From the NCBI RefSeq assembly GCF_003991155.1, contig NZ_CP031293.1: DNA of 64,000 bases. The stretch is one strand, 5' to 3'. The notes beneath the pieces are model-generated. The model saw only the letters and a program-made list of their open reading frames with translations, did not search any database and had not been told where the DNA came from. Positions 1 to 7,307 of this stretch are shown here, one piece after another. Position 1 is the first letter of the stretch. Each line of letters opens with the position of its first letter. The stretch comes from Escherichia coli (GTDB lineage Bacteria > Pseudomonadota > Gammaproteobacteria > Enterobacterales > Enterobacteriaceae). The position numbers and the translations under genes were made by a program.

Positions 1-769
1 GCAGGCGGTATTTCGGTTCGCCGTACTGATGAAACGGTAACAGATGGATCTGCCTGATATTCAGCGGGATCAGCACGTCCAGCGCCTGCTGCATATTCTC
101 CCGGCTGAGCGTGAAACCAGGGATCAGCGGTAAACGCGGGATCACGTTGACGCCCTCACTCACCAGCAAACGCAGATTCTCCAGCACGCGTGGCAGGTTC
201 ATCTTCACCACATCCCGCGCCTGAGTCGCGTCCATAATTTTTAAATCGAACAACACTTCATCGCACAATTTCGCCAGCGGTAACAGCTTGCTGGCTGGCG
301 CGTCTCCGGCAGTTTCAATGGCGCATGACACGCCCCACAACCGCAGCCGCTGTAAAAAACGGGTAGCAAACTCCGCCTGCATTAACACTTCGCCGCCAGA
401 AAGCGTGACGCCGCCGCCGGACGTGCGAAAGAAAATGTCATCTTTCATCACTTCCCGTTCCAGCGCGTCAAGGCTGATATCGCGGCCAATCCGTTCAAAC
501 GCCCCGGAGGGGCATTCATCCGCATCACGCAAACATTTCGCACAGTGCAGACATTTCGCCTCTCTGCGTACCGTCTGGATTTTGCCGGAGATCGACTCCG
601 GATTAGCACACCATGGGCAAAGATGCGGACAGCCTTTAAAAAAGACCACCGTACGAATGCCCTCGCCGTCATTCAGTGAATAACGCTGAATGTTGAAAAT
701 GCGCGCCACATCATCGCGGCGCGTTTCCACAACGTTACAGCTGATGCGCTGTCCGGCGGATGATGTCAT
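1..769 (-). CDS. pflC: Pyruvate formate-lyase 2 activating enzyme (glycyl-radical activase), 3' end truncated by the window edge
   Basis: Minus-strand translation begins MTSSAGQRISCNVV at 769 and contains the radical-SAM cluster motif CPHLCPWCANPE (around 590-630); overlaps the pflD stop by about 35 bp; runs off the window start. Confidence 0.85.
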   Translation of the reverse strand, partial: MTSSAGQRISCNVVETRRDDVARIFNIQRYSLNDGEGIRTVVFFKGCPHLCPWCANPESISGKIQTVRREAKCLHCAKCLRDADECPSGAFERIGRDISLDALEREVMKDDIFFRTSGGGVTLSGGEVLMQAEFATRFLQRLRLWGVSCAIETAGDAPASKLLPLAKLCDEVLFDLKIMDATQARDVVKMNLPRVLENLRLLVSEGVNVIPRLPLIPGFTLSRENMQQALDVLIPLNIRQIHLLPFHQYGEPKYRL

Positions 770-3032
770 CCTGGATCTCCTTCGACAGTTCGACAAAGAA
801 GGCGCTGTATCCGGCAACGCGCACCACCAGCCCGGCATAATCTTGTGGGCGCTGTTGCGCTTCCCGCAACGTGTCGGCGTTCACCACGTTAAACTGAATA
901 TGCTGCAACTTAAGCTGGGTAAACGCCCGTAAGAAGTCGGCCAGTTTGCGTAATCCCGCTTCACCTTCCAGGGTCGCCGGAGTGAATTTCACGTTCAGCA
1001 ACGTACCGTTAGACAGCAGCGTATTATCGAGCTTACTGACTGACTTCAGTACCGCCGTTGGCCCTTGTGCGTCCTGGCCCAGCATGGGTGACAAGCCGCC
1101 GTCTGCCAGCTGTTCTCCGGCAAAACGACCGTCTGGCGTCGCGCCAACCACCGATCCCAACGGGACGTGAGCAGAAACGGTATACGATCCCGGCGTGAAG
1201 TAGCCGCCGCGCGGGTTCTGGTATTTTTCCACTTCTTTGCAGTAGTGGCGTAACAGTTCGGCGCTGATGTTATCCACCTCGTCGATATCGTTACCGTATT
1301 TCTCGAAGCGGTTAATTAAGCGAGCACGGACTTTTTCGCCTTCTGGCGTTGCGAAGTTGGCTTTTAATACCGACAGCAATTCGTCAAAACTTAAACGCTG
1401 TTGCTCAAAAACCATACCTTTCAACGCATGGAGAGAATCGCTCAGGTTGGCGATACCGATCCCCTGTACGCCGGAGAAGTTATAACGCGCACCGCCATCG
1501 GTAATATCGCGGCCTTTTTCCAGACAATCGCTGATAAACGATGAGAGCAGCGGTACAGGTGCCCAGTCACGGTGACCGATATCGCAAATATTGCTGCCCT
1601 CAACCATCAGGGTGATGTAGTGGCTGATCTTGGCGCGGATCTGCTCCAGTAAACCTTCATAAGTCAGCGCAGCATTGCCTTCATTTTCATGCAGGCAGAT
1701 TTCCATCACTTTCAGCAGATTAAACATCGCGATGTCATGCAAGCCGTAGGTTCTGCCGGGAATAGATAATTCCACACAGCCCACTACGGAATAGTCGCGT
1801 GCATCTTCCAGCGAAACGCCACGGTTGAGGAACGCTGGCACCACTACTTCATCGTTAAAGATTTGCGGAATACCGGTGCCGAGGCGAATGGTTTCGGCGG
1901 TTTTCATCAGGAACGGCGTGTCGATCAAGGCGTTAGTGCGCACCCCCAGGTTCGGTTGCGGTAATTGCACGCTTTGATAGGCGTCAAGGCAAAGGAACGA
2001 AAGCACGTTCACCGCGCTACGTCCGTTCTCGGTTAACCCGCCGAGCAGTGCGGTATAGCCGGTCGGGAAACCGGCGAAATAACGCGCGCTACTGGTGGAG
2101 CGCAACAGCACGATGTCGTTGCATTTCACCCATAAAGATTCGAGCAGTTCTTTCAGGAACGCCGGATCTTCGCCCTGGGTTAATGATGCCTGATAGAACG
2201 GCAACATATACTGGTCGAAGCGCCCTAAAGACAGCGAACTGGCGTTGGATTCGTATTGCAGAATGATGTTCATGTACCAGAACAACTGGCACGCTTGCCA
2301 GAACGTCTGCGGCTTATGTTCGGCGTTATGGCGAGAGATCTCCGCAATAGTCAGCAGTTCTTCGCGACGCTGGGCATCTGTGCAGTTTGCCGCCATCGTT
2401 TCCGCCAGTTCGGCGTAACGCAAAATGTGTTTCTGTGAGGCTTCGAGCAGTAACAGCGCTGCCTGATAAAAGTGATTCTCCGGCTGTTGCTGACAATGTT
2501 GCTGCATTTGCGCTACCAGCTCACCCAGCCCGTGATTCAGCAGGCGCGGGTAATCAATAATAATGTGCCCCTGGCCTTTATCCGTCTGGTTGATGCTGAA
2601 AATCTGCGTGCTGGTCGCGGCTTTTACTTCATCCGTCATCTGCCCGTTGATGAAATCTTTCATCGAACGTTTTTCCCAGTACGGGAACAACTCTTCGCGG
2701 TAGATACGTTTATCTTCTTCGCTGATAGCAAAGCGGTCCTGCGGACGCGTCGGGAATTGATCCAGCTCTTTCAGCAGCCAGTAAGGGTCCATTTCCGGCG
2801 ACATAATCCCGGCGCGTGGTTTTACGGTGCGGTTACCGGCAATCAGTTCTTCATCACGAATCGAAATTTCAACGTGTTCAAGGATATACGCTGTTGCTTT
2901 CGCCCGGCGCAATATCACCGGTTCGCCTTCGGTTTGCCGATGGCTGGCGGTATAAAGCAGCGCCCGCTCCAGCGAGATTTCACGGGTATTGGCAAACAGT
3001 GCAGTTTTGAGGCGAGAGATACGATTCGTCAT
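735..3032 (-). CDS. pflD: Formate acetyltransferase 2-like glycyl radical enzyme
   Basis: 765 aa ORF; C-terminal glycyl-radical region RVAGYSAFF; recognised as E. coli PflD; sits in the frwCB-pflDC arrangement. Confidence 0.93.
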   Translation of the reverse strand: MTNRISRLKTALFANTREISLERALLYTASHRQTEGEPVILRRAKATAYILEHVEISIRDEELIAGNRTVKPRAGIMSPEMDPYWLLKELDQFPTRPQDRFAISEEDKRIYREELFPYWEKRSMKDFINGQMTDEVKAATSTQIFSINQTDKGQGHIIIDYPRLLNHGLGELVAQMQQHCQQQPENHFYQAALLLLEASQKHILRYAELAETMAANCTDAQRREELLTIAEISRHNAEHKPQTFWQACQLFWYMNIILQYESNASSLSLGRFDQYMLPFYQASLTQGEDPAFLKELLESLWVKCNDIVLLRSTSSARYFAGFPTGYTALLGGLTENGRSAVNVLSFLCLDAYQSVQLPQPNLGVRTNALIDTPFLMKTAETIRLGTGIPQIFNDEVVVPAFLNRGVSLEDARDYSVVGCVELSIPGRTYGLHDIAMFNLLKVMEICLHENEGNAALTYEGLLEQIRAKISHYITLMVEGSNICDIGHRDWAPVPLLSSFISDCLEKGRDITDGGARYNFSGVQGIGIANLSDSLHALKGMVFEQQRLSFDELLSVLKANFATPEGEKVRARLINRFEKYGNDIDEVDNISAELLRHYCKEVEKYQNPRGGYFTPGSYTVSAHVPLGSVVGATPDGRFAGEQLADGGLSPMLGQDAQGPTAVLKSVSKLDNTLLSNGTLLNVKFTPATLEGEAGLRKLADFLRAFTQLKLQHIQFNVVNADTLREAQQRPQDYAGLVVRVAGYSAFFVELSKEIQDDIIRRTAHQL

Positions 3033-3082
3033 GAGGAACTCCTGTGGGAAAGCGAACCCGCCCTTACGGGCGGGATAAGAAC

Positions 3083-3403
3083 TTAAGCGGTTTGTGCCAG
3101 GTGAGCTTCAATTTTGCTCATAATGGCATCAGCGCGTTTTACCGCGTCGCTGATGTTGACGCGCACGATGGTCTTGCCAGCAAAACGCTCTTCAAACTTG
3201 ATGCCGATATCTTTGGTCAGAATCACCATATCGGCGCTCGCCACGTCTTCCGCAGTCAGTTCATTTTCCAGACCAATCGAGCCCTGGGTTTCTACTTTCA
3301 CTTCCCAGCCTTTCGCTTTCGCGGCACTTTCCAGCGCCTCTGCCGCCATATAGGTATGGGCAACACCAGATGGACACGCGGTTACTGCAATAATTTTCGT
3401 CAT
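3083..3403 (-). CDS. frwB: PTS fructose-like enzyme IIB component
   Basis: 106 aa ORF starting MTKIIAVTACPSGVAHTYMAAE with the IIB phospho-cysteine motif; position between frwC and pflD. Confidence 0.9.
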   Translation of the reverse strand: MTKIIAVTACPSGVAHTYMAAEALESAAKAKGWEVKVETQGSIGLENELTAEDVASADMVILTKDIGIKFEERFAGKTIVRVNISDAVKRADAIMSKIEAHLAQTA

Positions 3404-3417
3404 GGCTCGTTCCTCAA

Positions 3418-4497
3418 TTAATTAATTTCAAAATCCAAATCCAGGTCGTCTTCTTTTTCATCAGTCGAAGACCCATTTTTACGCGCCAGACTTTTCAGCA
3501 CGTTCACACAAACAGCCGTCACCACTGCTCCGACAGCCACTGCTGCGATATAACCCAGCTTGCCTTCAACCACCGGCAGCACAATCAGACCACCCCAGCC
3601 TGCATAGCACTGCGCACCGACCAGCGCCGCAGTTACTGCACCACAAACTGAACCGCTCATGATGGAAGGAATAACACGCAGCGGATCGGCAGCGGCGAAA
3701 GGAATCGCCCCTTCAGTAACCCCAACGCACCCCATCACCAGCGCCGCTTTACCGGTTTCGCGCTCTTCTGCGGAGAAATTTTTACGACCAATCAGCGTCG
3801 CCAGCCCCATCCCCAGCGGCGGAACACAAATCCCCACGGCAGCAATGGCCACCACGGTATAAACACCCTGAGCAACGCAAATCAGCATGAAGGCATAGGC
3901 CACTTTGTTAACCGGACCGCCCATATCGAACGCCAGCATCAGCCCCATGATCACCGCCAGCATAACAATGCTGCCCTGCTGCATCCCCTGTAGCCACTGA
4001 GTCAGGCTGTTGGTCAACGCCCCCACCGGCTCGCCCAGCCCCCACATCATGACGCCAGCGGTAATCAGTGTGCCGACGATTGGAATGATGAAGATTGGCA
4101 TCACCGAGCGCAGAACTTTATGCACCGGAATTTTCTTCAGGTAATGCACCACGATGCCGCCGATAATCCCGGCGATCAGTGCACCAAAGAAGCCCGCGCC
4201 AAAGCTGTTACCAACCCAGGCACCGATAGCGCATGGAGCCAGCGCAGAACGTTCTGCAATGGAATAACCGATGTAAGCGGCGAGGAAAGGCACCATCAGC
4301 GTCAAACCTGCAACGCCGATATCAAACAGTTTTTTCAGATTCGGATCGGCTACGGCATCCGGCACTGCGCCTTTGCCATACAACATGACGGAAACCGCCA
4401 GCAAAATACCGCCCGATACCACGAAGGGAATCATGTGTGAAACGCCCGTCATTAAATGCTGACGGGTATTTTTCAGGATCTGCACCAACTCATTCAT
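3418..4497 (-). CDS. frwC: PTS fructose-like enzyme IIC permease component
   Basis: 359 aa polytopic membrane protein ORF; synteny with frwB/pflD. Confidence 0.9.
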   Translation of the reverse strand: MNELVQILKNTRQHLMTGVSHMIPFVVSGGILLAVSVMLYGKGAVPDAVADPNLKKLFDIGVAGLTLMVPFLAAYIGYSIAERSALAPCAIGAWVGNSFGAGFFGALIAGIIGGIVVHYLKKIPVHKVLRSVMPIFIIPIVGTLITAGVMMWGLGEPVGALTNSLTQWLQGMQQGSIVMLAVIMGLMLAFDMGGPVNKVAYAFMLICVAQGVYTVVAIAAVGICVPPLGMGLATLIGRKNFSAEERETGKAALVMGCVGVTEGAIPFAAADPLRVIPSIMSGSVCGAVTAALVGAQCYAGWGGLIVLPVVEGKLGYIAAVAVGAVVTAVCVNVLKSLARKNGSSTDEKEDDLDLDFEIN

Positions 4498-4805
4498 AAG
4501 CTGCTCCCGGGCTTGCGAAAGCCCATGTCCATATTTTTGATGGAAGAAACAATAGGCAATCGCAGGCGGAGCAAACAGTGGATAAAAAGGCCATTTACTG
4601 GACTTTTGTAATATCAGTACAAAAATGCGATCCGCCTCATAACTTGCGATAATCCGGAAGCATGCCGCAAAACGGCGTCTTGTGAGACGCGTCGCAAATT
4701 GACGGTTACATTACATTTGTCCAGCTTTTGGCAGATTTGTCACATGGCAGGCCGTTACCGTGCGCTCTTATCCTGTAAACAGAAAACCGTACCGGGAGAA
4801 AGGCA

Positions 4806-7307
4806 ATGGCCCTGATTGTGGAATTTATTTGTGAGCTACCTAACGGCGTCCATGCGCGTCCGGCAAGCCACGTTGAAACGCTGTGTAATACTTTTTCATC
4901 ACAAATTGAGTGGCATAACCTGCGCACTGACCGCAAGGGCAACGCCAAAAGCGCCCTTGCGCTGATTGGCACCGACACGCTGGCGGGCGATAACTGCCAG
5001 TTACTGATTTCCGGGGCCGACGAACAGGAAGCGCACCAGCGTTTAAGCCAATGGCTGCGCGATGAATTCCCCCACTGCGATGCGCCGCTGGCAGAAGTTA
5101 AATCTGACGAACTGGAACCACTGCCGGTTTCACTGACCAATCTGAATCCGCAAATTATCCGCGCCCGCACCGTGTGCAGCGGTAGCGCAGGCGGCATTCT
5201 GACGCCGATCTCTTCTTTAGATCTCAATGCGCTGGGTAATCTTCCCGCTGCCAAAGGCGTTGACGCCGAGCAATCCGCGCTGGAAAACGGCCTGACGCTG
5301 GTACTGAAAAACATTGAGTTTCGTCTGCTGGATAGCGACGGTGCTACCAGCGCGATTCTGGAAGCGCACCGATCCCTGGCTGGCGATACTTCCCTGCGCG
5401 AACATTTACTGGCAGGCGTCAGCGAGGGATTAAGCTGTGCCGAAGCGATTGTCGCCAGTGCACACCACTTCTGCGAAGAGTTTTCCCGTTCCAGCAGCAG
5501 CTACCTGCAAGAACGCGCCCTGGACGTACGCGACGTCTGCTTCCAGTTACTCCAGCAAATCTACGGTGAGCAACGCTTCCCGGCACCGGGCAAACTGACG
5601 CAGCCCGCCATTTGTATGGCGGATGAACTGACCCCCAGCCAGTTCCTCGAACTGGATAAAAATCACCTCAAAGGATTGTTGCTCAAAAGCGGCGGCACCA
5701 CCTCACATACGGTGATCCTTGCCCGTTCGTTCAACATTCCGACGCTGGTTGGTGTGGATATTGATGCCCTCACTCCGTGGCAGCATCAAACGATTTATAT
5801 CGACGGCAACGCTGGGGCGATTGTGGTTGAGCCAGGGGAAGCCGTAGCTCGTTATTATCAGCAGGAAGCCCGCGTACAGGATGCCCTGCGTGAGCAACAG
5901 CGAGTCTGGCTGACCCAACAAGCCCGTACCGCTGACGGTATCCGCATTGAAATTGCTGCTAACATCGCTCACTCCGTGGAAGCGCAGGCTGCATTCGGCA
6001 ATGGTGCGGAAGGCGTTGGTTTATTCCGCACTGAAATGCTCTATATGGATCGCACCAGTGCACCGGGCGAAAGCGAGCTGTACAACATTTTTTGTCAGGC
6101 GCTGGAGTCCGCCAACGGACGCAGCATTATTGTGCGCACTATGGATATTGGCGGTGACAAACCCGTTGATTATCTGAACATTCCCGCAGAGGCAAACCCG
6201 TTCCTCGGTTATCGCGCCGTGCGTATTTATGAAGAGTACGCGTCGTTATTTACCACACAACTACGGTCGATCCTGCGTGCCTCCGCTCACGGCAGCCTGA
6301 AAATCATGATCCCGATGATCTCCTCAATGGAAGAGATCTTATGGGTAAAAGAAAAACTGGCAGAAGCCAAACAGCAACTACGTAACGAACACATTCCGTT
6401 TGATGAGAAGATCCAGCTCGGCATTATGCTGGAAGTGCCGTCGGTGATGTTCATCATCGATCAATGCTGCGAAGAGATTGATTTCTTTAGTATCGGTAGT
6501 AATGACCTGACGCAATATCTGCTGGCAGTGGATCGCGATAACGCTAAGGTTACTCGTCACTATAACAGCCTGAATCCGGCATTCCTGCGGGCGCTCGATT
6601 ACGCCGTGCAGGCGGTGCATCGCCAGGGCAAATGGATTGGTCTGTGCGGTGAACTAGGAGCGAAAGGTTCCGTGCTGCCGTTGCTGGTCGGCTTAGGGCT
6701 GGATGAACTCAGCATGAGCGCACCATCAATTCCGGCGGCGAAAGCGCGGATGGCGCAACTTGATAGCCGTGAGTGCCGCAAGTTGCTCAACCAGGCAATG
6801 GCCTGCCGTACTTCGCTGGAAGTGGAACACCTGCTGGCGCAATTCCGCATGACCCAACAAGACGCACCGCTGGTCACCGCCGAGTGCATCACACTGGAAA
6901 GCGACTGGCGCAGCAAAGAAGAAGTGCTCAAAGGCATGACCGATAACCTGCTGCTGGCGGGCCGCTGTCGCTATCCGCGTAAACTGGAAGCCGACTTGTG
7001 GGCGCGCGAGGCCGTTTTCTCTACCGGTCTGGGCTTTAGTTTTGCCATTCCCCACAGCAAATCAGAACACATTGAGCAATCCACCATCAGCGTGGCGCGT
7101 CTGGCAGCGCCGGTGCGCTGGGGCGATGATGAAGCGCAATTCATCATTATGTTAACCCTGAACAAACACGCCGCGGGCGATCAACATATGCGCATTTTCT
7201 CGCGCCTCGCTCGCCGCATCATGCACGAAGAATTCCGTAACGCGCTGGTTAACGCCGCCTCTGCCGACGCTATCGCCAGCCTGCTGCAACATGAACTGGA
7301 ACTGTAA
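4806..7307 (+). CDS. ptsA: Multiphosphoryl transfer protein (HPr-like, enzyme I-like and IIA-like domains)
   Basis: 833 aa ORF; N-terminal HPr-like domain (GVHARPA), central PEP-utilising enzyme I domain ([19 protein letters not shown]), C-terminal IIA-like domain; divergent from frwC. Confidence 0.93.

Follow-up and report, generated by a model that had tools for sequence, protein, structure and literature searches.

For DNA in which one gene appears to start inside its neighbor, the question arises whether the assigned start is the genuine one and what the overlap does. In the Escherichia coli DNA studied here, a window of 64,000 nucleotides from contig NZ_CP031293.1, this question concerns pflC, which encodes a radical S-adenosylmethionine (radical-SAM) activase, and pflD, which encodes the glycyl-radical enzyme activated by it. 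Together with frwC and frwB, which encode components of a phosphotransferase system (PTS), both genes are encoded on the minus strand in the leftmost part of the window. The initial annotation placed the start of pflC 35 bp inside the 3′ end of pflD, took this to imply translational coupling and gave 14 bp as the gap between frwC and frwB. Both distances were borne out. The pflC ATG is found at 769..767 and the pflD stop codon at 737..735, i.e., the open reading frames (ORFs) have 35 nt (735–769) in common, and exactly 14 nt (3404–3417) separate the frwC stop codon (3418–3420) from the frwB ATG (3403–3401). The same 35-nt overlap is present in the RefSeq and the K-12 annotation. To question this start is legitimate, because the catalytic core of PflC begins only at about residue 21–24. 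As judged from the comparison of homologous loci, it is strongly supported that pflC starts at ATG 769, inside pflD, and that this start was maintained during evolution.

For this comparison, 80 loci encoding PflC relatives were taken from 100,044 species genomes and compared with the stop codon of the preceding glycyl-radical enzyme gene as anchor. The gammaproteobacterial set comprises 49 non-redundant loci from Enterobacterales, Vibrio, Gilliamella, Zophobihabitans and Necropsobacter. In E. coli, the start-codon context of pflC, which the initial annotation had left for checking, consists of the Shine-Dalgarno (SD) sequence AAGGAG (782..777), a spacer of 7 nt and the ATG. In 48 of the 49 gammaproteobacterial loci, an ATG is present at the identical place, its distance to the end of the pflD stop codon being 35 nt (position −35), so that the homologue alignment favors the overlapping start over a downstream one. 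This conserved ATG likewise has AAGGAG and the 7-nt spacer on its 5′ side, and the 35-nt geometry is maintained across four gammaproteobacterial orders. Moreover, the frame from the ATG at −35 stays uninterrupted up to the core despite insertions and deletions that let the length of this segment vary between 22 and 40 residues; a linker that is not translated would not be expected to keep its frame open across such length changes.

The ATG at −35 is built by the PflD Asp-Asp codons GAT-GAC and its conservation could reflect the PflD protein alone. Synonymous sites were therefore compared in 181 conserved two-fold-degenerate codon columns over the whole pflD gene of 49 species. The GAT codon giving the pflC ATG, used in 48 of 49 species, ranks first of the 181 columns for lowest variability, followed by the AAG codon of the SD (41/43, rank 2), the CAG codon of the SD-ATG window (46/49, rank 3–4), the GAG codon of the SD (45/49, rank 5) and the GAC codon of the SD-ATG window (44/49, rank 6–8). 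The AAG in the SD opposes the preference for AAA shown by the other conserved lysine columns of pflD. Furthermore, all five lowest-entropy windows of five codons in pflD span the SD-ATG site, and the wobble positions of the other overlap codons vary freely. In the paralogue ybiW, the 3′ end of which is not overlapped by any gene, the homologous Asp-Asp is encoded by GAC GAT and no ATG results.

The first 11 codons of pflC are overprinted on the PflD C-terminus and are followed by a linker of 11–29 residues, before the core sets in at IFNIQRY; from residue 12 onward PflC is hypervariable in sequence and length. Residues 1–11 are seemingly conserved (MTSxAxxRIxC), which is, as read from the alignments, a mere shadow of the PflD C-terminus (..QDDIIRRTAHQL*), since wobble changes in pflD show as residue changes in PflC (Ser/Phe, Ser/Leu). 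Cys11 was considered as a ligand and rejected: it is forced by the cTG+T of the pflD Leu-stop, and in loci with another last pflD codon Ser or Tyr takes its place. In an AlphaFold2 model of PflC calculated from a 20-sequence alignment, residues 1–17 have a predicted local distance difference test (pLDDT) score below 50 and lack secondary structure, in a model that is mediocre overall (mean 67) and equally poor in the iron-sulfur (Fe-S) insert. The leader seems to exist only for reaching the start site within pflD. Because the activases of Firmicutes start past the stop codon of the glycyl-radical enzyme gene, overlap and leader would represent a gammaproteobacterial innovation by overprinting, and the overlapping arrangement is, among the loci compared, limited to Gammaproteobacteria.

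Concerning the proteins encoded at this locus, the identities given by the initial annotation are supported for all four genes by matches to NCBIfam equivalogs that exceed the cut-off: PflD matches NF007437 with 1727 bits (cut-off 1109; 1–765/765), PflC NF007483 with 560 bits (cut-off 326), FrwC NF007787 with 717 bits (cut-off 426; 1–359/359) and FrwB NF007783 with 210 bits (cut-off 135; 1–106/106). Compared to K-12, PflD carries five substitutions in 765 residues and FrwC three, FrwB is identical and so are residues 1–256 of PflC. PflD contains the glycyl-radical motif RVAGY at 738–742 with G741 (window 812..810; PF01228 at 645–747) and the cysteine loop GCVE at 418–421 (C419/E421); PflC contains the CX3CX2C motif (C47/C51/C54) and the cysteines C73/C76/C79/C86 of a ferredoxin-like insert. 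The claim that all genes are intact and full-length stood for FrwC, FrwB and PflD, which match from end to end, and not for pflC, which leaves the window at its left edge so that codons 1–256 of 292 are present (NF007483 positions 1–256/292). The divergently transcribed ptsA, encoding a protein with the domains PF00381, PF05524, PF00391, PF02896 and PF00359, supplies the cognate HPr, enzyme I (EI) and EIIA_2 for FrwC/FrwB.

The initial annotation had considered the substrate of this enzyme as not established, which is outdated. PMC12441222, in citing Ma et al. (J Am Chem Soc 2024;146:26187), describes anhydro-sugars as being phosphorylated by a PTS, PflD as cleaving 1,5-anhydromannitol-6-phosphate to 1-deoxyfructose-6-phosphate and YbiW as cleaving 1,5-anhydroglucitol-6-phosphate to the same product; the K-12 locus reportedly represents the 1,5-anhydromannitol branch of “radical-mediated glycolysis” (Ma et al., 2024). 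The region very probably constitutes an frwCB-pflDC(-frwD) operon that, together with the divergent ptsA-fsaB-gldA, encodes the anaerobic catabolism of 1,5-anhydromannitol, with pflC translated from ATG 769 and its coupling to pflD inferred. In this pathway, PtsA (HPr-EI-EIIA), FrwB/FrwD (EIIB) and FrwC (EIIC) would import and phosphorylate the anhydro-sugar, PflC would put the glycyl radical on G741 of PflD, and PflD would open the ring by radical C–O cleavage yielding 1-deoxyfructose-6-phosphate. FsaB would then split this compound into glyceraldehyde-3-phosphate and hydroxyacetone, a reaction reportedly carried out by FsaA and FsaB, and GldA would convert hydroxyacetone to 1,2-propanediol, a reduction it is said to catalyze. 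The gene identities, the intact catalytic motifs and the cross-phylum association of PTS, glycyl-radical enzyme, activase, Fsa and GldA are observations of this analysis; substrate and reaction are taken from the literature. Throughout Enterobacterales, the divergent ptsA is followed by frwC-frwB-pflD-pflC-frwD and the convergent yijO. Homologues of Fsa adjoin pflDC in Vibrio, Gilliamella and Firmicutes, the gene being located directly 3′ of pflC in Vibrio and Gilliamella, and in Streptococcus a single operon reads IIA-frwB-frwC-pflD-pflC-fsa(-gldA). In Kluyvera, Pseudocitrobacter and Edwardsiella (L021, L024, L027, L032, L037), pflD-pflC with the 35-nt overlap occurs without adjacent frwC, frwB or ptsA, i.e., the link to the PTS is not obligatory.

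The two overlapping genes are located on the same strand, with SD and start codon of the downstream gene lying within the upstream ORF and kept there by selection. In the minimum-free-energy fold of the E. coli sequence, the SD pairs with the upstream Phe-Phe-Val codons and the AUG is part of a GGAUG/CAUCC hairpin; the 151-nt region around the pflC start folds with z = −2.5. As a control, the flanking pflD codons were recoded synonymously with the SD-ATG window held fixed. The probability of SD and AUG being unpaired is 0.013 in E. coli compared to 0.35 in the recoded controls, none of the 100 controls being as low, and 38 of 48 loci show an accessibility of the initiation region below the mean of their controls. 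The near-complete pairing in Escherichia implies that access to pflC should need unwinding by upstream ribosomes. Ribosomes finishing pflD would open the local hairpins that hide the pflC SD and AUG or, alternatively, would reinitiate at pflC after terminating 35 nt downstream; in either route, synthesis of the activase PflC would be tied to synthesis of its substrate enzyme PflD. For Escherichia, unwinding by ribosomes offers a reasonable model of coupling, and a coupling of pflC translation to pflD translation in general is plausible but unproven. Classical translationally coupled pairs have overlaps of 1 or 4 nt, such as the ATGA junctions in trp operon genes. Like pflD/pflC, they overlap on the same strand and carry the SD of the downstream gene within the upstream ORF; in contrast to them, the terminating ribosome stops 3′ of the start codon in the 35-nt overlap of pflD/pflC, so that coupling would need opening of structure or backward repositioning.

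Three other readings have to be considered. pflC might really start 3′ of the pflD stop codon, at the in-frame GTG 730 (codon 14) or GTG 709 (codon 21), in which case there would be no overlap and the annotated ATG would be an artefact of the gene caller. This is very improbable, although it accounts for the late begin of the PflC core (residue 3 of PflA aligns with residue 21 of PflC), for the E. coli paralogue YbiY, which lacks the PflC-type N-terminal extension and begins straight at MIFNIQRYS, for the Firmicutes orthologues, in which the activase begins 10–24 nt past the stop codon and 5–10 residues ahead of the IFNIQRY core without overlap, and for two JGI gene calls (P0097, P0103; 279 aa) that took the start at codon 14. 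Both GTGs (+4 and +25) are unconserved, codon 14 encoding Ile, Leu or Thr in many genera, neither is preceded by an SD in E. coli, and in at least 17 loci the stretch from the pflD stop to the conserved PflC core offers no codon that could serve as a start. The synonymous constraint, strongest in pflD at the pflC ATG and SD, and the frame that stays open through insertions and deletions speak against it as well. Of the starts located further upstream, an in-frame TTG at −62, which lacks an SD and is accounted for by PflD Phe-Val codons, and an in-frame ATG at −104, which lacks an SD and is unconserved, were rejected. Hardly credible is also the view that PflD is a second pyruvate formate-lyase and that the frw PTS imports fructose, as suggested by the RefSeq and K-12 product name formate C-acetyltransferase and by a 2019 paper citing PtsA in a putative PTS for anaerobic fructose catabolism. 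PflD reaches only 121 bits on the true pyruvate formate-lyase equivalog TIGR01255 (cut-off 994), aligning with only its C-terminal 190 residues, and its best family is TIGR01774 (PFL2/glycerol-dehydratase type; 1349 bits, cut-off 678). It matches over its full length, with 1730 bits, PDB entry 8YJO, the structure of the K-12 PflD protein that the depositors named “Probable dehydratase PflD”; the YbiW entries 8YJN and 8ID7 are named probable dehydratases, too. The conserved linkage to the Fsa aldolase and GldA suits 1-deoxyfructose-6-phosphate as product, and the substrate that PMC12441222 cites from Ma et al. (2024) likewise argues against a pyruvate formate-lyase.

More weight has to be given to the possibility that the overlap is real and pflC initiates independently at its own strong SD, the overlap being a by-product of a compact genome without coupling function. 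We consider this less probable than not, yet a serious alternative. For de novo initiation, the combination of AAGGAG and a 7-nt spacer comes close to the optimum, and the pflC SD is strong enough for initiation independent of pflD. The predicted masking of SD and AUG equals that of the synonymous controls in many genera: across 48 loci the median percentile is 0.26, and Rahnella and several other genera show no predicted masking or the reverse. Moreover, the masking hairpins show almost no covariation (91.5% of cells paired, RNAalifold covariation term of only −1.1 kcal/mol), as coding or the SD/ATG leaves almost no column free to vary. Opposed to independent initiation are the almost fully paired SD and AUG of Escherichia, beyond all 100 recoded controls, the reduced accessibility in 38 of the 48 loci and the exact 35-nt geometry maintained in four orders. 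Besides the masking data, further points weigh against the interpretation of the locus favored here. Vibrio hannami (L045 4909–4945), the sole locus without an ATG at −35, has ACG instead and must use another start, probably the in-frame ATG at −11. The PflC N-terminus was placed by comparison of sequences. The substrate assignment of PflD rests on a secondary citation and the names of PDB entries. Finally, pflC is cut by the window edge; it is likely intact in the source genome, because genomes 100% identical over window positions 1–4900 have the complete 879-nt gene (292 aa). An in-frame ATG at −11 is also found in other Vibrio species and in Edwardsiella hoshinae (L048, L052, L022); it arises from PflD codons for His-Glu in Vibrio and for Met-Asn in Edwardsiella hoshinae.

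Returning to translational coupling, a more comprehensive interpretation can be proposed tentatively, and we consider it somewhat more doubtful than probable. The overlap would be a dedicated expression device that was overprinted in the ancestor of Enterobacterales, Vibrionales, Pasteurellales and Orbales. A functionless PflC leader of 22–40 residues would solely reach the buried SD and start, synthesis of PflC would be confined to the place and time at which PflD translation is being completed, and the structurally conserved hairpin between frwB and pflD would set the ratio of transporter to enzyme. If true, this would represent a clean natural case of translational coupling by a long overlap, in which selection is visible at synonymous sites. 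At the level of sequence, the comparative analysis gives strong support for selection acting on the overlapping pflC start given in the annotation. For studies on activation or coupling, a single synonymous GAT to GAC change in pflD would give a clean PflC-null/PflD-wild-type allele.

The hairpin mentioned above is located in the frwB-pflD spacer (CCCGCCC-GUAA-GGGCGGG). It has an all-GC stem of 7 bp and a GNRA loop, is followed by the U-rich tail UUCGCUUUCC and is the best terminator-like site of the region. Most Enterobacterales, Vibrio and Gilliamella loci have a hairpin at the matching position with unrelated stem sequences, and 27 of 37 frwB-pflD spacers fold with z < −2. Citrobacter and Phytobacter contain repetitive extragenic palindrome (REP)/bacterial interspersed mosaic element (BIME)-like elements in its place, and the hairpin is absent where the spacer measures 16–27 nt (Rahnella, L005, L016, L028). 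This suggests that it acts as a partial terminator or as a stabilizer of the mRNA 3′ end between transporter and enzyme genes. The frwC/ptsA control region is 301–328 nt long in 31 Enterobacterales and contains near-invariant blocks at approximately 4545–4650 and 4706–4745, a recurring CCAGTAAATG/CTGGACAAATG-like motif and a CRP-like site, TGTGAgacgcgTCGCA, at 4681–4695. The conserved blocks within 4498–4805 are candidate sites for YijO (AraC-type) and CRP. A scan of positions 1–5000 for sigma-70 consensus promoters returned no promoter-like site, compared to 3.8 expected, which together with the conserved blocks fits an activator-dependent, normally silent operon. An Rfam scan of positions 1–5000 at E ≤ 1 gave no match and thereby no support for a known riboswitch or leader. 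In the 5′ untranslated region (5′-UTR), a hairpin, GGGCTTgcgaAAGCCC at 4509–4524, adjoins the frwC SD; it shows compensatory variants in other genera (GGGCCT..GGCCC, GAGCG..CGCTC) and is deleted in the Enterobacter clade.

Table 1. Features of the frw-pfl locus and of the adjoining divergent genes, in window coordinates.
Feature	Position	Strand	Basis
pflC, 5′ part, codons 1–256 of 292, radical-SAM activase of PflD	1..769	−	NF007483
pflD/pflC overlap, 35 nt, pflC in +1 frame of pflD	735..769	−	ORF coordinates
pflC translation-initiation region inside pflD	767..782	−	sequence, synonymous constraint
pflD, glycyl-radical enzyme, 765 aa (1,5-anhydromannitol-6-phosphate C-O lyase / “dehydratase”)	735..3032	−	NF007437, PDB 8YJO match
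frwB-pflD spacer, 50 nt	3033–3082	−	sequence
GC-rich stem-loop within frwB-pflD spacer	3057..3074	−	top terminator-like match
frwB, PTS fructose-type EIIB, 106 aa	3083..3403	−	NF007783, PF02302
frwC-frwB spacer, 14 nt, UUGAGGAACGAGCC, contains frwB SD GAGGA	3404..3417	−	sequence
frwC, PTS fructose-type EIIC, 359 aa	3418..4497	−	NF007787
frwC/ptsA divergent control region, 308 nt	4498..4805	.	alignment of 31 Enterobacterales spacers
ptsA, HPr-EI-EIIA(Fru) multiphosphoryl transfer protein, 833 aa	4806..7307	+	Pfam; K-12 b3947
fsaB, fructose-6-phosphate aldolase 2, 220 aa	7319..7981	+	PF00923, annotation
gldA, glycerol / L-1,2-propanediol dehydrogenase, 367 aa	7992..9095	+	PF00465, annotation

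Window positions 1–4900 are E. coli chromosome, and at least a dozen complete genomes in RefSeq match them with 100% identity. In these identical genomes, frwD follows beyond the window 1 nt past pflC, and then the convergent yijO, encoding an AraC-type regulator. The locus is carried by 5425 of 5426 complete E. coli genomes, in line with the earlier judgment that it is conserved and not novel, and it is already known: it belongs to the E. coli core, the solution of its chemistry dates from 2024 and the reference annotation includes the overlap. In K-12, frwC-frwB-pflD-pflC-frwD (b3949–b3953) and ptsA-fsaB-gldA (b3947–b3945) form the same locus with the same order, 14-nt gap and 35-nt overlap. 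The DNA identity to K-12 MG1655 is 97.8%, and the differences are strain-level polymorphisms only, apart from the pflC codons past 256, frwD and yijO, which the window lacks.

Within E. coli, the ybiY-ybiW/fsaA system, i.e., the 1,5-anhydroglucitol-6-phosphate branch, contains a paralogous glycyl-radical enzyme (PflD scores 481 bits to the YbiW structure in the PDB), an activase, YbiY, that belongs like PflC to the TIGR02494 family, and the adjoining divergent fsaA. It differs in having the activase gene first, with a 5-nt gap to ybiW (L083 6608–6612), no overlap and no adjacent PTS genes. The Firmicutes clusters of Streptococcus, Clostridium and Enterococcus encode proteins that are 57–62% (PflD) and 41–48% (PflC) identical, with PTS IIA/IIB/IIC, fsa and sometimes gldA alongside. 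PflB/PflA have the glycyl-radical fold, the C-terminal RVxG motif and the radical-SAM activation chemistry in common with PflD/PflC; the reaction is different, and PflA has neither the N-terminal extension nor the ferredoxin-like insert found in PflC.

Several minor observations concern annotation and rare variants. The PGAP names at this locus are outdated or misleading, i.e., “formate C-acetyltransferase” for PflD, “[formate-C-acetyltransferase]-activating enzyme” for PflC and the gene name “ptsP” for ptsA, and the misleading RefSeq product names are worth knowing for users of these annotations. In one E. coli genome (SCPM-O-B-8794; L002 2354–2366), the frwC-frwB spacer apparently measures 10 nt instead of 14 nt, as judged from tblastn coordinates only. 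Rare E. coli variants include a call of a 402-aa PflC-FrwD fusion, the two genes being 1 nt apart, several truncated PflC proteins of 252–274 aa, and a protein of 322 aa in which the Gly_radical domain is joined to PflC, presumably by a frameshift in the overlap.

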